From contig NZ_CP010904.1 of assembly GCF_001017655.1 (NCBI RefSeq), positions 1 through 32,000 on the forward strand: DNA of 32,000 bases, read 5' to 3'. A model generated the notes under the pieces. It searched no databases. It had not been told where the DNA came from and saw nothing but the letters and a program-made list of their open reading frames with translations. This DNA is from Kiritimatiella glycovorans. Its GTDB lineage: Bacteria > Verrucomicrobiota > Kiritimatiellia > Kiritimatiellales > Kiritimatiellaceae. The position numbers and the translations under genes are program-made. Position 1 is the first letter of the stretch. Every line of letters starts with the position of its first letter. This document shows, piece by piece, positions 7,981 through 32,000 of the stretch.

Positions 7981-8087
7981 GAACCTATTCCGGCGGTTCT
8001 TCGTAGATTTTTATGGAAGGGTTCCCGGGAAAGGTGGGATGCGGGAGATCGGAAGGGGAGAGAGCATGAAGGTGGGTTGAGGAGGGG
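7981..8087 (+). repeat. P module, subtype 1 (TTCGTAGATTTTTATGGAAGG..., purine-rich)
   Basis: About 85% identical by eye to 27341-27400. Its tail CATGAAGGTGGGTTGAGGAGGGG recurs inverted at 20908-20938 and 27622-27661. Confidence 0.8.
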
Positions 8088-8210
8088 CATAATCCGTACT
8101 CGCACTCGTACTCGTACTCGGAGCGCCGAAGGCGCGATCCCCCTCCCCCGGTTCAAGGAACTCGAGTACGAGTACCGCTTCGCTGAGTACGAGTACGAGT
8201 ACGAATTATG
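8088..8210 (+). repeat. A element copy A1: hexamer-armed palindrome
   Basis: CATAATCC(GTACTC/GCACTC)n, then CTCGGA-GCGCC-GAA-GGCGC-GATCC, a C-tract, GGTTCAAGGAACTC, (GAGTAC)2 CGCTTCGCT (GAGTAC)3 GAATTATG. The termini are inverted repeats. Confidence 0.9.
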
Positions 8211-8243
8211 TCTGTGAATCCCGATTTCGAGATCCCATCCGTG
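8211..8243 (-). repeat. S module (6-nt periodic, ends CGGGATTCACAGA)
   Basis: The reverse complement matches 13895-13925, 18873-18926 and 27794-27844. Confidence 0.75.
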
Positions 8244-8253
8244 TTTTCTCTTA

Positions 8254-8351
8254 CGCTCGTAGTAGGCCCGCAGGCCTGCGAAGCAGGGCCAGGGCCGTTA
8301 TCTTTCACGCGCCTGGCCTGCCGGGGGCAGGCGTGCGGCGCTACTACGAAC
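8254..8351 (-). repeat. Y element copy Y1 (GTAG-headed inverted doublet, REPIN-like)
   Basis: Termini CGCTCGTAGTAG ... CTACTACGAAC. Internal hairpins CCTGC-GAA-GCAGG and GCCTGCC-Cn-GGCAGGC. Homologous to 18663-18760 and 31840-31936. Confidence 0.9.
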
Positions 8352-8358
8352 TTCTTCA

Positions 8359-8459
8359 CGCTCGTAGTAGGCCCGCAGGTCCGCGCAGCGGGGCCAGGGC
8401 CGTTATCTTTCACGCGCCTGGCCTGCCGGGGGGGCAGGCGTGCGGCGCTACTACGAACG
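8359..8459 (-). repeat. Y element copy Y2, tandem to Y1 with a 7-bp gap
   Basis: Termini CGCTCGTAGTAG ... CTACTACGAACG. Same architecture as Y1. Confidence 0.9.
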
Positions 8460-8507
8460 ATATCACGCGCCTTGGCCCTTCGGGCGCTTACGGCGCTATT
8501 ACGAACG
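8460..8507 (-). repeat. Y element partial, diverged copy (Y3)
   Basis: Retains TCACGCGCC ... GGCGCTATTACGAACG, which matches the same half of Y1 and Y2. Confidence 0.6.
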
Positions 8508-8588
8508 TTTGTCGTCTCCCATCCCGCCTCTTCCCCGAACGGCTCCACCACAAAAATCTACGAAGAACCCTATTCCGGCGGTTCTTCG
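8508..8588 (-). repeat. P module, subtype 2 (TTCGTAGATTTTTGTGGTGGAGCCGTTCGGGGAAGAGGCGGGATGG...)
   Basis: The reverse complement is nearly identical to 18603-18662 and 31781-31839. Confidence 0.9.
8549..8588 (-). terminator. intrinsic-terminator-like hairpin plus T5, supplied by the P2 head
   Basis: On the minus strand: CGAAGAACC, 10-nt loop, GGTTCTTCG (perfect 9-bp stem), followed by TAGATTTTTGTGG. The TAG stop of the upstream CDS lies in the loop. Confidence 0.5.
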
Positions 8589-9088
8589 CCGCGGGCGGCG
8601 AAATAGTGGCGAAGGAATTCGAGATCCGGAGCGTCTTTTGCCCGGTGCGTGTGGGCTTTCATGCGCCACAGCAGGCGCGGGGAGGCGAACGGAATGCAAA
8701 CCCCATCCACCTCACGGCACACAATGTCCGAAGCTGCGGACTGGTAATCGATGCCGGCCGCGGAGCTCATAAGGTCGACGATGATTTCATCTGCGATGCG
8801 CACAACAACGTATTTCGACACATCGCCCGCCTCAAGCTCACGCACAGCACCGTCCGGCAGACATTCCAATGCACGGTAAACGCGCTGTTCGTTTGCCGAT
8901 TCGGAATCAATCAGTATATCGACATCGCCCGTCAACCGGGGATAGCCGGTTTGAATGATGGCAAACCCCCCTACGATCAGGTAGCGGCAGCCCCCATCGT
9001 TTAACGACCGACACAGGCGGACCAGGTCCTCCCGCTCCGGTGGACGTGGTTCTAGCTCGGCTTGTCCGCCATGTTTTCCATCGTCCAT
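8570..9088 (-). CDS. nucleotidyltransferase-fold protein (minimal NTase, TA/Abi-like), 172 aa
   Basis: The pattern G-G-x(n)-D-x-D in YLIVGGFAIIQTGYPRLTGDVDILID is typical of pol-beta-superfamily NTases. Overlaps its upstream partner gene by 37 nt. Confidence 0.7.
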   Translation of the reverse strand: MDDGKHGGQAELEPRPPEREDLVRLCRSLNDGGCRYLIVGGFAIIQTGYPRLTGDVDILIDSESANEQRVYRALECLPDGAVRELEAGDVSKYVVVRIADEIIVDLMSSAAGIDYQSAASDIVCREVDGVCIPFASPRLLWRMKAHTHRAKDAPDLEFLRHYFAARGEEPPE

Positions 9089-13883: not shown

Positions 13884-13925
13884 GCGGGACGCGCAATCGA
13901 AGCCGAACTCGGGATTCACAGAGAA

Positions 13926-14010
13926 CGTGATTCGTACGCGTACGCGTGCTCGGAGCGCCGCAGGCGCGATGCCACTACCCCGATTCGAGGAAATCGAGTA
14001 CGAGTACGAT
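13926..14010 (+). repeat. A element copy A2
   Basis: GTGATTC(GTACGC)2 GTGCTCGGA-GCGCC-GCA-GGCGC-GATGCCACTACCCCGATTCGAGGAAATC(GAGTAC)2. Confidence 0.85.
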
Positions 14011-14039
14011 GTGACGCGAGCGGAGTTTCCTTTGCTCAC

Positions 14040-14074
14040 CGCAAAAATTACGGAGAACTCTCCGATGGGAGTTC
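14040..14074 (-). terminator. terminator-like hairpin plus T5 just downstream of purB
   Basis: On the minus strand: GAACTC, 8-nt loop, GAGTTC, then TCCGTAATTTTTGCGG. Homologous in layout to the P-head hairpin at 8549-8588. Confidence 0.4.
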
Positions 14075-14104
14075 ATTCAAGGGCGCGATCCCCCCTGCCC
14101 GGCG

Positions 14105-17787: not shown

Positions 17788-18534
17788 ATGGAGGCGGTGT
17801 TCGACAATATCCGGGTCGTCCTCGTGCGGCCGAAGTACGGCGGGAATATCGGAGCGGTCTGCCGGGCCATGATGAACGGCGGCCTGACCGACCTCGCCCT
17901 GGTCGCCCCGGATCCGCAGGCGGACTGGGAGGACGCACGGCGGCGCGCCCACAGTGCGGTGGACGTCCTGGACCGCGCCTGCCGCGTCGACACCCTGCAG
18001 GACGCGCTGGGCGACTGCGCGGCGGCGGCGGGCACCACGGCCCGCCCGGGCCTGTACCGCGCCCACGCCACGACCCCGCGCGAATTCGCCCCGCGTGCCC
18101 TCGAATGCGCCCGCGCCAACCGCGTGGCCCTCGTGTTCGGGCCGGAAGATAAAGGCCTGAACAACCGGGAACTGGCTTTGTGTACAGATCTGCTGCGCAT
18201 CCCGAGCAGCGGGCTGTACCCCTCGCTCAACCTGTCGCACGCGGTCTATGTCTGCGCGTACGAAATCTTTATGGCCTCCGGATCGTTCGAGCCGGAAGGC
18301 GAGCCGACGGGAGACGCCGCGATCGAGCAGCGCGAACGCATGTATGCTCTGTGGCGGGAGGTGATGGCGGAAACCGGCTTTGCCGAACCGGAGAAGATAG
18401 ACCATATGATGATGGGCCTCAGGCGCATCTTCTCCCGCGGCCGGCTCTCGGATAACGATGTGAGAATTCTACTCGGCCTGGCTCGCCAGACGCTGTGGGC
18501 CTGCAGGCGCAGGGACGGGAAGAACGGGGCCTGA
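17788..18534 (+). CDS. trmJ: SpoU/TrmH-class tRNA 2'-O-methyltransferase, TrmJ-like, 248 aa
   Basis: Start trimmed to ATG 17788 (MEAVFDNIRVVLVRPKYGGNIGAVCRAMMNGGL). ALVFGPEDKGL and YPSLNLSHAV knot motifs. Confidence 0.8.
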   Translation: MEAVFDNIRVVLVRPKYGGNIGAVCRAMMNGGLTDLALVAPDPQADWEDARRRAHSAVDVLDRACRVDTLQDALGDCAAAAGTTARPGLYRAHATTPREFAPRALECARANRVALVFGPEDKGLNNRELALCTDLLRIPSSGLYPSLNLSHAVYVCAYEIFMASGSFEPEGEPTGDAAIEQRERMYALWREVMAETGFAEPEKIDHMMMGLRRIFSRGRLSDNDVRILLGLARQTLWACRRRDGKNGA

Positions 18535-18662
18535 TTCATCCACTGAACAGCCCTATGCAGATCCATATTTTCGATCCCGATTTCGATCATCCGGAAACAT
18601 GGCTCTTCGTAGATTTTTGTGGTGGAGCCGTTCGGGGAAGAGGCGGGATGGAAGACGACAAA

Positions 18663-18760
18663 CGTTCGTAGTAGCGCCGCAAGCCTGCCCCCCCGGCAGG
18701 CCAGGCGCGTGAAGATAACGGCCCTTGTCCGCTGCGCGGACCTGCGGGCCTACTACGAAC
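18663..18760 (+). repeat. Y element copy Y4 (best-preserved copy)
   Basis: Perfect 12-bp terminal inverted repeat CGTTCGTAGTAG / CTACTACGAACG. Hairpin a GCCTGCC-CCCC-GGCAGGC (18681-18698). Hairpin b GTCCGC-TGC-GCGGAC (18726-18740). Confidence 0.92.
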
Positions 18761-18926
18761 GTGAGAGAGAACGCACCATTTCTTTGCCTGTGCTCTTCTC
18801 ATTCATCTTTGCGATCTCTGCGCCTTGGCGAGAGACCTTTCTTGTGTTTTCGGCCACGGATTACACCGATGACACGGATGAAATCTCGAAATCCGAATCG
18901 AAGTCGAAATCGGGATTCAGAGAGAA

Positions 18927-19024
18927 CATAATTCGTACGCGTACTCGGAGCGCCGACGGCGCGATCCCATCCCCCGATTCAAGGAATTCGAGTACGAGTA
19001 CCGCTTCGCTGAGTACGAGTACGA
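18927..19024 (+). repeat. A element copy A3
   Basis: CATAATTC GTACGC GTACTC GGA-GCGCC-GAC-GGCGC-GATCCCATCCCCCGATTCAAGGAATTC (GAGTAC)2 CGCTTCGCT (GAGTAC)2 GA. Confidence 0.9.
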
Positions 19025-19090
19025 CGGGACGCGAGCGGATTTCCCGTCGCCTCACCACAAAAAATTGCGTAGAACCGGAAACATGAACAG

Positions 19091-19111
19091 GGGGCGGACC
19101 CTGTCCGCCCC
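19091..19111. terminator. strong GC hairpin (GGGGCGGAC-CCT-GTCCGCCCC) downstream of the hsp20 operon
   Basis: Perfect 9-bp stem with a 3-nt loop, 46 bp past the stop of the last hsp20 gene. T-rich sequence follows on both strands (TGTTCCCGTGCTTTTT on +, CTGTTCATGTTTCC on -). Confidence 0.5.
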
Positions 19112-19156
19112 TGTTCCCGTGCTTTTTGCATCGCGGCGACTTTGCGCGGGGCCTCT

Positions 19157-19648
19157 TTAACCGGTCGTGATGTCGATCGTCCGGCGGCCGGACTTGTATT
19201 CCTCGGTTTTGGGAACTTCGACGTGGAGCACCCCGTTCTTGAAGTTCGCCCTGATGTTCTCCGTGTCCACCCCGTCCGGCAGCGGAATCGACCGCTGGAA
19301 CCGGCCGTAGGAGCGTTCGGACACGTAGTAATTTTTCTTCTTGTCCTCGGACTCCTGCTGCTTCTCGCCGGCGATGGTCAGCACGTCACCGTCGAGCGTG
19401 AGCTCCAGGTCGTCTTCCTTCATCCCGGGCAGCTCGGCGTCGACCGAGATCGCGCTGTCGGTCTCCGCGACCTCGAACCGCGGGACGACCGCCCCGAACC
19501 GTTCCGTGTCCCGGAAGGCCGGCATTTCGCCGAAGAAGTCCTCGAACAGTTCGTTCATCCGGCGCTGGAAGCCCTCAAAGGGATCGTACCCTTCGCCTCC
19601 GCGACGCTGGACTTCGTTCCTCCTTCTCCTCGGAATCAGGTTTTTCAT
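19157..19648 (-). CDS. Hsp20/alpha-crystallin small heat-shock protein, 163 aa (third gene of the operon)
   Basis: Start trimmed to ATG 19648 behind AGGAGGTG. ACD motifs AELPGMKEDDLELTLDGDVLTIAGEK ... FKNGVLHVEVPK. Confidence 0.9.
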   Translation of the reverse strand: MKNLIPRRRRNEVQRRGGEGYDPFEGFQRRMNELFEDFFGEMPAFRDTERFGAVVPRFEVAETDSAISVDAELPGMKEDDLELTLDGDVLTIAGEKQQESEDKKKNYYVSERSYGRFQRSIPLPDGVDTENIRANFKNGVLHVEVPKTEEYKSGRRTIDITTG

Positions 19649-19719
19649 AATTACACCTCCTGGTTTGAACGCTTCATTCCATTCGCTCACCGCGGTGCGG
19701 CGATTCCCCGCATCCGCAT

Positions 19720-20127
19720 TCAGCCCGTCCGGACTTCGATTTTCCTGGGACGGGCCTCCTCCGCTTTCGGGAGCGTGACCGTGAGCACCCCGTTCGCGAG
19801 ATGCGCGCGGATGTGGTCCCGGTCCACGCCGGTCAGAAGGCTGAAAGAGCGGCGGAAGATTCCGGTCCGGTATCCCGTATGGACCCGGTCGCGTCCCTCC
19901 GCCTTCTCTTCGGCCTGTTCGCCGGTGACCGTCAAAACATCCTGGTCGAGCTGAAGATCGATTGCGTCGGCGGGAACGCCGGGCATATCGGCCGTCAGCA
20001 CAATGTCCTGCTCCGTCTCGCAGATGTCGCAGGCCGGTGTCAGGATGGCGCGGTCGCGTGCCGGTTCCGCCGCTTCCTCCCGCGCGGGCCGCTCGTTCCG
20101 TTTAACCTGTATATTCCTGTCCGTCAT
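19720..20127 (-). CDS. Hsp20/alpha-crystallin small heat-shock protein, 135 aa (second gene)
   Basis: Start set at ATG 20127 (MTDRNIQ) behind GGAGG. ADMPGVPADAIDLQLDQDVLTVTGEQ ... LANGVLTVTLPK. Confidence 0.88.
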   Translation of the reverse strand: MTDRNIQVKRNERPAREEAAEPARDRAILTPACDICETEQDIVLTADMPGVPADAIDLQLDQDVLTVTGEQAEEKAEGRDRVHTGYRTGIFRRSFSLLTGVDRDHIRAHLANGVLTVTLPKAEEARPRKIEVRTG

Positions 20128-20154
20128 GGTCGCCTCCATGGTTTTGTCGAGTGC

Positions 20155-20580
20155 TTATTCCTCTCCCGTAATCGCAATCCTGCGCGGTCGGGTGGCCTCC
20201 GCGCGCGGGAGCGTGATCTTGAGGATCCCGTCTCGGTACTCGGCGCTCACCTTTTCCCGCTCCACTTCGTAAGGAAGATGGATGCGGCGCGAAAACGAAC
20301 CCGAAAGACGCTCCCTGCGATGCAGCTGCGCCCCCTCGCGGGGCTCGTGCGCCTTGCGCTCGCCCGAGATCGTCAGCTCGTTTCCCTGCACCGTGAGATC
20401 CATGTCTTCAGGCGCTACGCCGGGAACCTCGGCCGCGATCACCGCCTCGTCCTCACCGGTCCACATGTTCACCGGGGGAAAAACCGCCCCCGCTCTTCCA
20501 TAGCCGCTCAGCAGACGATTCATGTCATCCCGGAATCGCTCCATGCTGTCGAACGGATCCCTGTAGTCCAACCAGAACAT
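20155..20580 (-). CDS. Hsp20/alpha-crystallin small heat-shock protein, 141 aa (first gene)
   Basis: Start trimmed to ATG 20580 (MFWLDYRDPFDSM) behind AAGGAGG. AEVPGVAPEDMDLTVQGNELTISGER ... YRDGILKITLPR. Confidence 0.9.
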   Translation of the reverse strand: MFWLDYRDPFDSMERFRDDMNRLLSGYGRAGAVFPPVNMWTGEDEAVIAAEVPGVAPEDMDLTVQGNELTISGERKAHEPREGAQLHRRERLSGSFSRRIHLPYEVEREKVSAEYRDGILKITLPRAEATRPRRIAITGEE

Positions 20581-20622
20581 CTCGCACCTCCTTGTTAGTC
20601 GTTCCCTGTTGCGCCTTTGTTT

Positions 20623-20640
20623 AAGCATAGCTCGTGCCAG
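20623..20640 (-). promoter_or_regulatory. sigma-54 (RpoN) -24/-12 promoter upstream of the hsp20 operon
   Basis: The minus strand reads CTGGCACGAGCTATGCTT against the consensus YTGGCACG-N4-TTGCW. GG and GC have exact spacing and there is one mismatch in the -12 box. It lies about 42 nt upstream of ATG 20580. Confidence 0.6.
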
Positions 20641-20756
20641 AAATGGGCAGGAATTCATAATCCTATGGCGGACAACTTTTTAAGAGCATTGCCATTTAAT
20701 ATATATGTGTCCCTCTGACTCATTGGAGGGGTCGCGGCGGGGCGGAAAAGGGACAT

Positions 20757-20824
20757 AATGGCGCGGCGCGCCCGCGCACGTTTCGGTGCGTTCGGACGTG
20801 TGAGGGGCCGGAAAGGGCTTTTTT
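20757..20824 (+). repeat. T module (CGCAC-GTTTCG-GTGCG hairpin, then GGGGCCGGAAAGGGC plus T6)
   Basis: About 85-90% identical by eye to 31714-31776. Confidence 0.8.
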
Positions 20825-20907
20825 CGTACTCGAGTTCCTCGAATCGGGGGAGGGGGATCGCGCCTTCGGCGCTCCGAGTACGAGTACGAGTGCGCGTACG
20901 GATTATG
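20825..20907 (-). repeat. A element copy A4 (short left arm)
   Basis: The reverse complement reads CATAATCC GTACGC GCACTC GTACTC GTACTC GGA-GCGCC-GAA-GGCGC-GATCCCCCTCCCCCGATTCGAGGAACTC GAGTAC G. It is followed at 20908-20938 by an inverted P1 tail. Confidence 0.88.
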
Positions 20908-20990
20908 CCCCCCTCAACCCACTTTCATGCTCTTGATGGCCGCGACGCAAGCCGTCAGGGGCCGCGTTGCGGGGTGTTTTGCAAGAGGCT

Positions 20991-21038
20991 CTGACTCTGA
21001 TTCTGACTCTGACTCTGACTCTAATTCTGATTCTGACT
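20991..21038 (+). repeat. hexanucleotide microsatellite (CTGAYT)8
   Basis: CTGACT CTGATT CTGACT CTGACT CTGACT CTAATT CTGATT CTGACT. Bracketed by the perfect 10-bp inverted repeat GTTTTGCAAG (20976-20985) / CTTGCAAAAC (21057-21066). Confidence 0.95.
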
Positions 21039-21149
21039 CCCACACCCCGAAAAAGACCTTGCAAAACCCGTGTTGATCCTGTTGAATACTCCGTCCGTTT
21101 TCGATCGTTACGGAAAGAACATGCGCGTTCAGCGTGCGGGGCGGTTAAG

Positions 21150-21359
21150 ATGAAAAAAGAGATTCATCCGGAATACCAGGAAGCAGTCATCAAGTGCGCC
21201 TGCGGCAGCGAGTTGCGCACCCGGTCGACGGCAAAGGAAATGCACGTGAACACGTGCGCTCACTGTCATCCCTTCTTCACGGGCAAGGCCAAGTACATCG
21301 ACACCGAGGGCCGGGTCGAGCGCTTCCAGAAGCGTTACGCGAAGTTCATGAACAAGTGA
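21150..21359 (+). CDS. rpmE: 50S ribosomal protein L31 (Cys-containing, zinc-binding type), 69 aa
   Basis: Start trimmed to ATG 21150 (MKKEIHPEY). CxC ... CxxCHPFFTGK. Confidence 0.93.
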   Translation: MKKEIHPEYQEAVIKCACGSELRTRSTAKEMHVNTCAHCHPFFTGKAKYIDTEGRVERFQKRYAKFMNK

Positions 21360-27211: not shown

Positions 27212-27522
27212 GATAATCTATCCGGTTTTCGTTCCCTGAAAAACGTTCCTTCAGCGCGGTGTTCTGAAGCGGGCGTTGCGCGGACGCACCGCAGGCGCCC
27301 ATGATTGCGGATCTCGGGTTTCATGCAAGGAAGAAGCTCGATCGTGGATTTTTATGGAAGCTTTCCCGGAAAAGGAGGGATGCGGGAGATCGGGGGGAGT
27401 GACTGCGTAAAAAACGCTATCGCGGGGAGAGAATGGGATTCACCATGAAGGACATGAAGAGCATGAAAGTTGCTAGAGGGGGTGGGAGAGCCACCTGAGT
27501 TCAACATGGGGACACCCGGGGG

Positions 27523-27621
27523 AATATCGTACTCGTACTCGTGCTCGAATTCCTTGAATCGGGAAATGGGATCGCGCCTTCGGCGCTCCGAGTACGCGTA
27601 CGAGTACGGGTACGAATTATG
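27523..27621 (-). repeat. A element copy A5
   Basis: The reverse complement reads CATAATTC GTACCC GTACTC GTACGC GTACTC GGA-GCGCC-GAA-GGCGC-GATCCCATTTCCCGATTCAAGGAATTC GAGCAC GAGTAC GAGTAC GATATT. Confidence 0.88.
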
Positions 27622-27661
27622 TTCACCCTCCTCAACCAACCTTCATGTCCTTCATGTGAAG

Positions 27662-27719
27662 GTAGGGACGGACCTCCGGGCCGTCCGCAAAACCGGCGCG
27701 CTCGGAGATCGCGCCCTAC
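27662..27719. repeat. 58-nt GTAGGG-headed inverted doublet (second REPIN-like type)
   Basis: GTAGGG-ACGGAC..GGGCCGTCC ... GGCGCG-CTCGGAGAT-CGCGCC-CTAC. Two hairpins are enclosed by GTAGGG/CCCTAC. Confidence 0.7.
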
Positions 27720-27844
27720 CGAAGAGGTGCAAGCCGAACCCATGCGTGAGGGTAGGGGCGGACCTGCGGGCCTGCTACGAACGTAAGAGAGACCACGGAT
27801 GGGGTCTCGAATTCCGAATCGAAGTCCACATCGGGATTCACAGA

Positions 27845-27960
27845 CATGATTCGTACTCCTACTCGTACTCGTACGCGCACTCGGAGCGCCGGAGGCGCGT
27901 TTTTTCCAGTTCAAGAAATCGAGTACGAGTACCGCTTCGTTGAGTACGTTTACGAGCACG
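27845..27960 (+). repeat. A element copy A6 (variant: C-tract replaced by T6)
   Basis: CATGATTC GTACTC CTACTC GTACTC GTACGC GCACTC GGA-GCGCC-GGA-GGCGC-GTTTTTTCCAGTTCAAGAAATC (GAGTAC)2 CGCTTCGTT GAGTAC GTTTAC GAGCAC G. Confidence 0.88.
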
Positions 27961-28117
27961 ATGTGACGGGAGCGGATTTCCGGTCCAGCCACTCAACAGG
28001 ATCATAGAGCGGCCCGGCTCCAAAATCCGTTTTAATCCGCACCGTCTGCGGCAAGTCAATCCAGCCGACCGTTCGGCGCCCGGATCGGGCTGCCGGGCGA
28101 AAAAATTCTTCCCGTGC

Positions 28118-28145
28118 TTGTCGCGCGGAGATCGTCGATTATACT
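28118..28145 (+). promoter_or_regulatory. possible sigma-70 promoter TTGTCG-N16-TATACT upstream of the CBS gene
   Basis: Lies 22 nt upstream of ATG 28168. RBS GAGGAGGG. Confidence 0.35.
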
Positions 28146-28167
28146 GCCGCGAAAGAGGAGGGCGCAT

Positions 28168-28608
28168 ATGGGTACCGTGAACCGGTTGCTGGATTCCAAA
28201 GGAAGGGACGTGCTGTCGGTAAGTGCCGACACGCCGGTATACGACGCACTGAAAGAGATGGAAGACCGCGCGATGGGGTCGTCGCTGATCCTTGAGGACG
28301 GCAAGCTCGTAGGGATCATCACCGAGCGCGACTGTACGCGCAAGGTCGTGCTGGAGGACAAGGACATCCACCAGATGAAGGTCCGCGACATCATGAGCAC
28401 CGATCTGGCGACGATACTTCCCGACGAATCTCTCGAGGAGTGCATGCGCCTGATCACTGCGAATCGCATCCGCCACCTGCCGGTCGTGGATGAGAACGGC
28501 GAGGTCGGCGGCGTGGTGTCGATCGGCGACGTGGTCAAGTATCTGGTCACCGAAAAAGAGTTCGTGATCAAGAACCTCGAAAACTACATCACCGGCACGG
28601 GGATGTGA
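28168..28608 (+). CDS. CBS-pair domain protein, 146 aa
   Basis: Start trimmed to ATG 28168 (MGTVNRLL). Two CBS repeats (VGIITERDCTRKV ... RIRHLPVVDENGEVGGVVSIGDVVK). Confidence 0.85.
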   Translation: MGTVNRLLDSKGRDVLSVSADTPVYDALKEMEDRAMGSSLILEDGKLVGIITERDCTRKVVLEDKDIHQMKVRDIMSTDLATILPDESLEECMRLITANRIRHLPVVDENGEVGGVVSIGDVVKYLVTEKEFVIKNLENYITGTGM

Positions 28609-28712
28609 CGGCAACGGTTCCGCGCTGACCGGGAGGGGCGTGATCGGGGACGGGTTGTGGAAAGCTCCGCATCCTGTGGAATCTGCACCCCCGGAGGCGC
28701 CCGTCCGGGCGG

Positions 28713-29375
28713 TCAGCGTTTCCGGCGCCGGTTGATCTCGTCGGCGGGGATGAAGATCAGGACCTTGGTTTCGAGTTCCGGCTCCTCGATCCAGAGCGAG
28801 AGCGGGAAGAGTTCGTAGTCCTCGATCCCCGCCTCGTCCAGCTCCAGGCTCGGATCGCCGCCCTTCAGGTAGAACAGTCCGCGGCGCTCCTCCCCGTGCG
28901 CACCCGCCCCGATGCGTCCGCGGAGCCAGTCGCACAGGGTCGCCAGCGATTTCAGCGCGCGGCCCGTGACGAAATCGAACCGCTCCTCCATGGATTCGAT
29001 TCTCGCGCGCCGGACCTCGACATTAGCGAGTTCCAGCCGGTCGACGAGGTCTTCCAGCACGCGGGTTTTCTTGGCCACGGAGTCCACCAGGGTGAACCGG
29101 CAGTCGGGGCGCAGGATGGCCAGCGGGAGTCCCGGCAGGCCGCCCCCGCTGCCCGCATCCATGATGGCGGAGTCGGCGGGAAAATCGACGGCGCGCAGTA
29201 CGGCGAGCGAGGGCAGCAGGTGTTTGCGTTCGAAGTTGGGCATATCCCGTCGGGAGACGAGATTGATGCGTTCATTCCACCAGCCCAGCAGGCGCGCATA
29301 TTCGGCGAGTACGTGTCGCTGGTTCTCGTCGAGTTCGGGAAAGTTCTGTCGGACCAGCGGAAGTGGCTCACTCAT
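28713..29375 (-). CDS. rsmG: 16S rRNA (guanine527-N7)-methyltransferase RsmG (GidB), 220 aa
   Basis: SAM motif IMDAGSGGGLPGLPLAI. WNERINLVS. Its ATG overlaps the argC stop (ATGA). Confidence 0.9.
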   Translation of the reverse strand: MSEPLPLVRQNFPELDENQRHVLAEYARLLGWWNERINLVSRRDMPNFERKHLLPSLAVLRAVDFPADSAIMDAGSGGGLPGLPLAILRPDCRFTLVDSVAKKTRVLEDLVDRLELANVEVRRARIESMEERFDFVTGRALKSLATLCDWLRGRIGAGAHGEERRGLFYLKGGDPSLELDEAGIEDYELFPLSLWIEEPELETKVLIFIPADEINRRRKR

Positions 29376-31713: not shown

Positions 31714-32000
31714 CATGGCGCGCACGCGTACGTTTCGGTGCGTTCGGACGTGTGAGGGCCCGAAAAGGGCTTTTTTGGATTCTTCGCAGATTTTTGTGGT
31801 GGAGCCGTTCGGGGAAGAGGCGGGATGGAAGACGACAAACGTTCGTAGTAGCGCCGCACGCCTGCCCCGGCAGGCCAGGCGCGTGAAAGATAACGGCCCT
31901 TGTCCGCTACGCGGACCTGCGGGCCTACTACGAACGTAAGAGAGAACGCACCATTTCTTTGCCTGTGCTCTTCTCATCCATCTTTGCGATTTCCGGGTAG
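31714..32000. repeat. composite repeat block R5: T, P2, Y5, X (cut by the window end)
   Basis: T at 31714-31776; P2 at 31777-31839; Y5 at 31840-31936; X at 31937-32000. The span 31781-31995 is about 95% identical by eye to 18603-18818, in the same orientation. Confidence 0.9.
31840..31936 (+). repeat. Y element copy Y5
   Basis: CGTTCGTAGTAG ... CTACTACGAACG. Hairpin b is GTCCGC-TAC-GCGGAC, and the hairpin a C-tract is shortened to 4 C. Confidence 0.92.

Follow-up and report, generated by a model that had tools for sequence, protein, structure and literature searches.

A candidate family of ISL3-type miniature elements with GTAG REP-like hairpin cargo in intergenic spacers of Kiritimatiella glycovorans

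Why do six spacers between the housekeeping genes of Kiritimatiella glycovorans, the type strain of the phylum Kiritimatiellota, draw on the same small set of repeated modules? The spacers (7981-8588, 13893-14104, 18565-19075, 20757-20938, 27341-27980 and 31714-32000) lie in the first 32,000 nucleotides of contig NZ_CP010904.1, the stretch analysed here and referred to as the window. An initial annotation had described them as mosaics of freely shuffled modules named P, A, S, Y, X and T. We found that the modules follow a single plan with defined ends, and the spacers probably represent copies and decayed fragments of one ~0.5-kb family of non-autonomous transposable elements of the miniature inverted-repeat kind (MITEs), of the ISL3 type, carrying GTAG-tagged hairpins that resemble repetitive extragenic palindromic (REP) sequences as cargo.

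The sharing of modules among the six spacers, as initially reported, was borne out by repeat search, self-BLAST and BLAST with reference modules. The repeat search of the window linked the spacers through direct families D1-D17 and inverted pairs I1-I25, which measured 25-107 nt and were 63-100% identical. Self-BLAST (E<1e-4) detected 2,036 nt of repeated sequence, or 6.4% of the window, in 10 intervals that all fell inside the six spacers, with none in the genes or other spacers of the window; the earlier hand tally of about 2.5 kb, or 8%, was of the right order and slightly high. The repeats make up ~40% of the intergenic DNA in the window, the total of which was estimated at ~5 kb. Every module was recovered by BLAST with its reference copy, with E-values down to 1e-37 to 1e-70, and the longest matches, found in both orientations, reached up to 107 nt at 96-98% identity and 88 nt at 97%.

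We examined the order of the modules by module BLAST and alignment. The results showed one collinear plan, consisting of a P end, one to three copies of Y, an optional X, S, A and an inverted P end. The P module occurs as three subtypes (Pa, Pb and Pc) rather than the two initially recognized. The copies, numbered R1 to R6, and their modules are the following.

7995-8569, minus strand: R1, complete, 575 bp, with a Pb end, a partial Y, Y, Y, S, A (core inverted) and a Pa end; in forward-strand order the map is Pa+ A+ S- Y- Y- Y'- Pb-.
8088-8210, plus strand: module A of R1, the reference copy, with outer ends CATAAT...ATTATG and arms (TACTCG)n/(CGAGTA)n.
8253-8508, minus strand: tandem Y of R1, comprising 8253-8353, 8358-8462 and a partial copy at 8463-8508 (D2, 95% identity, 105-nt period; z score of the fold -4.2).
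13895-14062, plus strand: R2, 5'-truncated (S tail+ A+ Pc-), between the convergent stops of pheS and purB.
18601-19076, plus strand: R3, complete, 476 bp (Pb+ Y+ X+ S+ A+ Pc-), with Pb at 18601-18661, Y at 18662-18765, X at 18766-18850, S at 18851-18923, A at 18924-19024 and the inverted Pc at 19025-19076.
20757-20938: R4, a fragment without a terminal repeat between the divergent starts of hsp20 and rpmE, with T at 20757-20823 (plus strand, T6 end), positions 1-88 of A reversed at 20824-20911 and a Pa tail (minus strand) at 20912-20938.
27337-27990: R5, a compound cluster (Pa+ ... A- Pa tail- ... Y tail+ S+ A+ Pc-like).
27337-27722: left part of R5, with a degenerate Pa end at 27337-27402, A (minus strand) at 27521-27625, a Pa tail (minus strand) at 27626-27656 and a GTAG doublet at 27661-27722.
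27758-27990: right part of R5, 5'-truncated, with a Y tail at 27758-27792, S at 27794-27844, A at 27845-27961 and a decayed Pc end at 27962-27990.
31777-32000, plus strand: R6, a sister copy of R3 with the Pb end GGATTCTTCGCAGATTTTTGTGG, Y and X, ending with the window (D5, D7); together with module T it spans 31717-32000 (T+ Pb+ Y+ X+).
31717-31776, plus strand: another module T, which shares 93% identity with that of R4 (D12) and has the hairpin GCCC-GAAAA-GGGC followed by T6.

The window contains three full or near-full copies and four fragments, and R3 and R1 are the complete ones. The same order of modules was found in R1 (as its reverse complement), R3 and R6; in R2 and the right part of R5 it is truncated at the 5' side. 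The only true change of orientation affects the core of A, on either side of which the module has its long inverted hexamer arms. The apparent shuffling is therefore explained by 5' truncation (R2 and right R5), fragmentation (R4 and left R5) and inversion of the palindromic A core, and the free shuffling initially proposed does not hold. R3 and R6 are 94.5% identical over Pb-Y-X (219 aligned columns), the Pb copies are 98% identical, and module A of R1 is 97% identical to that of R4 (I1); such identity suggests recent copying.

The elements occupy convergent, divergent and tandem gene contexts, and several lie just past the 3' ends of genes. The R3 insertion (18588-18601) lies upstream of the first ATG of the open reading frame (ORF) 18246-18590 (minus strand), at a distance of 2 nt; if that start is real, the ribosome-binding region of this ORF lies inside the terminal repeat of R3. 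The last ~45 codons of the ORF 27859-28935 (minus strand) would come from modules A and Pc.

We next consider the ends of the elements. The P modules form the termini and constitute imperfect terminal inverted repeats of ~22-25 bp with the pattern GG[C/T]TCTTCGTAGATTTTTRTGG, also written as GG[C/T]TCTTCGTAGATTTTT and GG[CT]TCTTCGNAGATTTTT. In R3, the left terminus GGCTCTTCGTAGATTTTTGTGGTGG and the reverse complement of the right terminus, GGTTCTACGCAATTTTTTGTGGTGAGG, match at 23 of 31 aligned positions. Both termini of R1 read GGTTCTTCGTAGATTTTT(A/G)TGG, with the first 18 nt identical and 23 of 30 positions matching. Comparison with the published start of ISL3 inverted repeats, GGCTCTTCG, gave 9/9 matches for the left end of R3, 8/9 for both ends of R1 (GGTTCTTCG) and 7/9 for the right end of R3 (GGTTCTACG). 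ISL3 elements of Microcystis, and a MITE that shares their ends, have inverted terminal repeats starting with GGCTCTTCG and 8-nt direct repeats (PMC11448079), and the ISL3-family element ISArsp7 has the left inverted repeat GGCTCTTCGCGGTTGGTGGTGAAT and the 8-bp direct repeat CCTTTGCC (PMC6305408). The motif GTGGTG, located further inward, is common to ISArsp7 and the Pb end.

Both complete elements are flanked by direct repeats.

18593-18600 (left) and 19077-19084 (right): GGAAACAT, an exact 8-bp direct repeat abutting both ends of R3.
7985-7994 (left) and 8570-8579 (right): CTATTCCGGC, a 10-bp direct repeat abutting the terminal repeats of R1.

The chance of an abutting repeat at fixed positions is 1.5e-5 for the 8 bp of R3 and 1e-6 for the 10 bp of R1. 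Since the target of R1 continues with the terminal-repeat-like GGTTCTTCG, the boundary of its duplication is ambiguous and may extend to 20 bp. Within the right direct repeat of R1 lie the stop codon (CTA, TAG on the minus strand) of the DUF2204 gene (8570-9088) and its final codons (GEEPPE*). R5 showed no flanking direct repeat. A hairpin, AACAGGGGGCGGACCCTGTCCGCCCCTGTT, at 19086-19125, downstream of the hsp20 operon, adjoins the right R3 duplication. The terminal inverted repeats and flanking direct repeats make the suspected mobility of the modules probable.

We searched for coding signal in the elements. Pfam had no match and no transposase remnants in long reading frames through R1 and R3, and a six-frame peptide query from the P, Y, X and S modules retrieved nothing at E <= 0.001 from 5.8 billion proteins, so that no annotated ORF in that set runs into repeats of this kind. 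Small leader ORFs considered in P were explained by the extended inverted repeat and were rejected. These results, together with the folds of Y and A, agree with the initial view of the modules as non-coding, intergenic and hairpin-forming.

Module Y is an inverted doublet of 98-105 nt. Both of its ends read (C)GTTCGTAGTAG, and each half consists of GTTCGTAGTAG followed by a hairpin. Folded as single-stranded DNA, Y is predicted to form a 13-bp and a 5-bp stem closing a three-way junction, with a free energy of -33 to -36.5 kcal/mol and z scores of -4.2 to -6.8 relative to shuffled sequences (-6.8 for the Y of R3). The window contains 4.5 copies, all intergenic. All P termini carry the heptamer TTCGTAG, and so does each Y, at either end. 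Y matches the published description of GTAG-tagged REP head-to-head dimers, the type known as REPINs. GTAG REPs and their dimers have been reported from Proteobacteria, Cyanobacteria, Chloroflexi and the Planctomycetes-Verrucomicrobia-Chlamydiae (PVC) superphylum, in which Opitutus terrae is highly enriched (PMC3733652). The proposal that the modules are undescribed therefore has to be revised, for the P ends carry the ISL3 inverted-repeat start and an ISL3-sized 8-bp duplication, and Y belongs to the REPIN class known from that study. A second type of REP doublet, missed in the initial annotation, is present in R5: a single-copy GTAG inverted doublet of 58-62 nt at 27661-27722 (GGTAGGGACGGACCTCCGGGCCGTCC...GGCGCGCTCGGAGATCGCGCCCTACC), which begins with GTAGGG and has a 6-bp stem.

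Module A is the hexamer-armed palindrome initially described, with arms (CGTACT)n and (GAGTAC)n detected by Tandem Repeats Finder. The central hairpin of A is GCGCC-GAA-GGCGC in R1, and across copies its stem is invariant and its loop variable (GCGCC-NNN-GGCGC). The DNA fold of the 127-nt stretch at 8084-8210 had a z score of -5.1; P, S, X and T gave no significant fold.

Elements with the termini of Y were also found in a second bacterium, which is uncultured and unrelated to K. glycovorans. A metagenome scan that used only the two Y termini and their spacing yielded 56 loci with at least 58 exact-terminus elements, nearly all from one Joint Genome Institute (JGI) sample (Ga0315274) and with a GC content of 62%. 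The metagenomic elements are 89 nt long and have an invariant 27-bp terminal stem and an interior unrelated to that of K. glycovorans Y. A search by nhmmer with this family matched only those loci; what links these elements to K. glycovorans is therefore the shared architecture and, at each end, the 20-nt sequence of tag and arm, GTTCGTAGTAGCGCCGCAAG, not overall homology. P, A, S, X and T had no BLAST match in the metagenomic loci. The RluA-like protein of the metagenomic organism is closest to metagenome proteins and, among named organisms, to that of a Candidatus Sumerlaeia metagenome-assembled genome (MAG; 61% identity), which also has the Gfo/Idh/MocA-RluA synteny, a placement by one protein and local synteny. 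K. glycovorans was not among the best 120 RluA-like matches.

In these loci Y sits between two conserved modules, L and R, which are themselves GTTCGTAG-headed hairpins (the GTAG-type hairpin head in the Ga0315274 population is also written GTTCGTAGTAGCGCCGCAAGGCGCG). No flanking duplications were found around the L-Y-R elements, and the arrangement is a REP cluster resembling a bacterial interspersed mosaic element (BIME). In 3 of 37 copies (L122, L153 and L164) the interior of Y runs opposite to the modules on either side, as recombination between the inverted 27-bp termini might leave it; the inverted A core of R1 is a parallel case. In a 65%-identical relative (L191:7460-7990), which may represent a Y-less state of the cluster, GTAG-headed modules like L and R are joined directly, with no Y between them and with a (GTTTCAA)n tract in addition. 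In the 3-bp apical hairpin of the metagenomic Y, CG<->UA exchanges occur in 14 sequences and AU<->GC exchanges in 20, a score that 0/500 shuffles reached; part of this signal could come from two linked subfamilies. The loci also harbor a second, unrelated repeat of ~430 bp with terminal inverted repeats TTTGACAGGATGACAGGAT (L171:7469-7894; also L154, L147, L138, L124 and L126), which has at least six copies that are 89-93% identical and looks like another MITE. At 62% GC the ORF heuristic was too noisy to show how the metagenomic elements are oriented toward genes. A positive control for ISL3, in which all the loci retrieved were scanned for pairs ending in GGCTCTTCG and flanked by 8-bp duplications, yielded none.

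Given the ISL3-type ends, the duplications and the lack of coding signal, the simplest reading is a non-autonomous ISL3-type MITE family, and we consider this reading probable. An ISL3-family DDE transposase encoded elsewhere in the genome would bind both P ends, excise the element and paste it into intergenic DNA, where the flanking direct repeat would result from staggered cuts in the target. The interior would be non-coding cargo, comprising one to three tandem Y copies, the A palindrome with its invertible core, and S and X as linkers. Y is an independent kind of repeat, as elements with its termini are scattered in another bacterium where the other modules gave no match; it was probably captured by, or inserted into, the MITE. 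The truncated copies (R2, R4 and parts of R5) would be products of deletion or rearrangement, and module T, located outside the terminal repeats, may be a terminator-like neighbor or a preferred landing site. The repeats and their single order, the terminal inverted repeats, the flanking duplications, the hairpins of Y and A and the lack of coding or Rfam signal are observations; the transposase family, the mobilization in trans and the capture of Y are what we infer in this scheme. The genome would have the capacity for it: 75 transposase genes and 12 islands have been reported in its 2.95 Mb, in a paper that does not state the transposase families and does not mention spacer repeats (PMC5148204).

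Several observations weigh against this reading. No ISL3 transposase with P-type ends was seen in the 32-kb window. The duplication around R1 measures 10 bp instead of 8 bp, and as much as 20 bp with the target GGTTCTTCG counted; the right end of R3 (GGTTCTACG...) is a diverged terminal repeat; and duplications were checked in two copies, R5 having none and R6 ending with the window. There was no empty site for comparison, because the closest PheS relative is only 75% identical. The occurrence of TTCGTAG in both P and Y termini could also mean that a single GTAG-recognizing (Y1/HUH) enzyme acts on both, with the ISL3 match being partly coincidental.

This last point leads to the strongest alternative, in which the whole mosaic is a REP/BIME-type cluster. 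The Y halves, the P ends and the R5 doublet would be substrates, as single-stranded hairpins, of a REP-associated tyrosine transposase (RAYT) or of a tyrosine transposase associated with terminal inverted repeats (TIRYT); local duplication and recombination would enlarge the clusters and produce the flanking direct repeats as by-products. The distribution of TTCGTAG fits this alternative, as do the textbook GTAG head-to-head dimer formed by Y with its strong hairpin (z = -4.2 to -6.8) and the tandem Y copies of R1 (D2). GTAG REPs, dimers, clusters and terminal-inverted-repeat families flanking tyrosine transposases have been described, including in the PVC superphylum (PMC3733652). The metagenomic Y elements in clusters of GTTCGTAG-headed hairpins without flanking duplications are likewise as expected for HUH enzymes. 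Unlike REPs, however, the P modules show no significant hairpin (z = -0.3 to -0.5), the inverted P ends are directly adjoined by exact direct repeats of 8 bp and 10 bp, and the 9-nt terminal match is to ISL3 ends. Target duplication is not known for IS200/IS605-type or RAYT-type enzymes. Neither the window nor the 502 kb of Y-rich metagenomic loci yielded a Y1/HUH gene, the latter searched by tblastn with an Escherichia coli RAYT query and by a regular expression for HUH/Y motifs; this is a weak objection, RAYTs usually being single-copy. On balance, we regard the REP/BIME explanation as unlikely, if still worth serious consideration.

A less likely alternative, which we hold to be doubtful, combines the two chemistries. 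The elements would be chimeric hitchhikers, in which an ISL3-type DDE shell captured substrates of a GTAG-recognizing HUH enzyme of the RAYT type, and the sharing of the tag would reflect the spread of REP/RAYT systems between phyla. The tag plus arm GTTCGTAGTAGCGCCGCAAG is common to Kiritimatiellota and to the uncultured bacterium nearest the Sumerlaeia MAG (61%, one protein). If this were true, REP doublets could be moved by two unrelated transposition chemistries. REPIN-RAYT systems are viewed as almost strictly vertically inherited, and horizontal spread, if real, would run counter to that view.

A further possibility is that the modules are host-selected functional sequences spread by duplication, such as small RNAs, terminators or insulators, mRNA-stabilizing 3' hairpins or protein-binding sites. 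The stability of the Y and A hairpins, far above that of shuffled controls, the conserved A stem with its varying loop, and the compensatory changes in 2/3 pairs of the metagenomic apical hairpin are compatible with function, as is the location of several copies just beyond gene 3' ends. The second T copy, with its hairpin and T6, lies 145 nt past the DUF481 stop and directly abuts the R6 terminus; a simple terminator scan did not call it. A sigma-70-like site (TCGAAA-17-CATAAT) is present at the S-A junction at 18904-18932, its -10-like CATAAT belonging to the outer arm of A, and its spacing differs in other copies.

Rfam, which the initial annotation had proposed to consult, returned at gathering thresholds only a tRNA in the window. 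The best sub-threshold scores for R1 and R3 were 19-21 bits against thresholds of 48-77, with no match even at E <= 1, and three metagenomic loci gave none. A 20.7-bit match of X to group II intron D5 was attributed to chance (threshold, 61 bits). Integron attC sites and CRISPR were also rejected, as there were no RYYYAAC/GTTRRRY cores and no spacer-repeat array. Besides the lack of an Rfam family, the presence of elements in every gene context, the frequency of truncated and decayed copies, and terminal inverted repeats with target duplications, which mark transposition rather than gene duplication, speak against selection by the host; the covariation could stem from the two subfamilies, the promoter-like spacing is unconserved, and T escaped the terminator scan. 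We therefore consider this explanation very unlikely. A host role is possible for individual modules and would leave the terminal repeats, duplications and decayed copies unexplained.

An assembly artefact or chance similarity of GC-rich spacers can be dismissed: GC-richness and the generic nature of the 18-nt A-core pattern (>120 chance matches across genomes) are all that could be cited for it, and the matches are long (107 nt at 96-98%), lie in both orientations with E-values that reach 1e-37, and come from mutually diverged copies with unique flanks on a finished 2.95-Mb chromosome, which excludes the artefact that the initial annotation had allowed for. The genome scan with the A core CTCGGAGCGCCGNNGGCGCG gave at least 120 matches in unrelated high-GC genomes, none extending beyond 20-40 nt, and these were set aside as chance. 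BLAST of R3 and R1 against plasmid and phage collections found no match, and three pattern scans of viral contigs for the Pb, Y and A cores gave 0 matches each. The terminal-inverted-repeat pattern had 9 matches in viral contigs, mostly in coding sequence (KIYEEP-type peptides), and these were also assigned to chance. One IMG/VR contig end (L182:74-97) contains a 24-nt exact match, GGCTCTTCGTAGATTTTTATGGAG, to the Pa terminus, which is too short and truncated to interpret.

Housekeeping genes make up the rest of the window outside the repeats. The stretch starts at the origin end of the chromosome, and its genes are the following.

First genes: dnaA, dnaN.
Further genes: a tRNA, a glycosyltransferase, pyrC, a BrkB/Rrf2 fusion and an AsmA-like gene.
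Further genes: a DUF2204 nucleotidyltransferase, an HD phosphohydrolase, ubiA, fba, pheS, purB and ilvD.
Further genes: three hsp20, rpmE, a release factor, mnmG, alaS, gidB and a DUF481 outer-membrane protein.

Gene annotation confirmed that none of the genes in the window encodes a transposase, RAYT or recombinase. The three hsp20 genes are tandem paralogues located between R3 and R4 (19157-20658, minus strand). The L31 domain of rpmE begins only at residue 62 of the ORF 20967-21359, and the 5' region of the gene contains a hexanucleotide microsatellite, (CTCTGA)x8.5, at 20989-21039; this is another 6-nt periodic tract, in the spacer shared with R4, and is not related to the modules. The PheS of the window is 100% identical to the NCBI protein of K. 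glycovorans; the next-best PheS is only 75% identical, so that no close relative is available. In four contigs of the closest Kiritimatiellales (PheS identity, 75%), the surroundings of pheS, ~68 kb in all, contained none of the modules.

The spacer repeats are of known kinds, a probable ISL3-type MITE and GTAG REP doublets, and not a new kind of system. What they amount to looks like an element family of a known selfish-DNA kind that has so far been undescribed in this phylum. They extend the catalogue of GTAG REPs and MITEs to a little-studied phylum and bear on genome plasticity in a lineage thought recently isolated. For annotation, such repeats yield spurious ORFs and altered gene ends, as shown by the stop codon held in the R1 duplication and by the ORF that takes a repeat tail. 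The recurrence of Y termini across organisms provides a handle for finding the enzyme that recognizes them.

Several known systems resemble these elements in part. Pneumococcal BOX elements (boxA-boxB(n)-boxC) are likewise modular, non-coding, intergenic and hairpin-forming, and the one to three copies of Y recall boxB; this comparison concerns architecture alone, and BOX elements, whose mobilizing enzyme is unknown, lack ISL3-type ends. In the mosaics of Neisseria (Correia elements with dRS3/CGTC REPs; cited in PMC3733652), MITEs are also interleaved with REP-type repeats in spacers, but the repeat families, the termini and the duplication (TA for Correia elements) differ. The resemblance to BIME-type mosaics noted in the initial annotation holds: enterobacterial BIMEs also combine a small number of palindromic unit types, which alternate in orientation and are joined by conserved linkers, into intergenic mosaics. 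That likeness, again of architecture alone, ends at the order of the units, which is combinatorial in BIMEs and follows one fixed plan here, and at the terminal inverted repeats and target duplications, which BIMEs do not have.

The closest counterparts of Y are the GTAG REPs and REPINs associated with RAYTs (PMC3733652; PMC3116915; PMC3479197). Like them, Y consists of two inverted, GTAG-headed imperfect palindromes with the GTAG outside, has a conserved spacer, forms a long hairpin, occupies extragenic sites, can be reiterated in tandem and clusters with other repeats. It differs in its longer tag, GTTCGTAGTAG, and in that its halves contain different hairpins (a heterodimer); within the window, which has no RAYT, it occurs only inside the P-bounded composite or in fragments. 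The elements as a whole are most similar to ISL3 MITEs and insertion sequences (the Microcystis aeruginosa MITE, PMC11448079; ISArsp7, PMC6305408), with which they share the GGCTCTTCG/GGTTCTTCG starts, imperfect terminal inverted repeats of ~22-25 bp, the 8-bp duplication of R3, small size, the lack of a transposase, the presence of several copies and an intergenic location. They depart from these in the 10-bp duplication of R1, and no cognate ISL3 element was identified in the window. At 476-575 bp they are at the large end of bacterial MITEs, and their interior is a chain of palindromic modules with a GTAG REP doublet instead of a deleted transposase gene.

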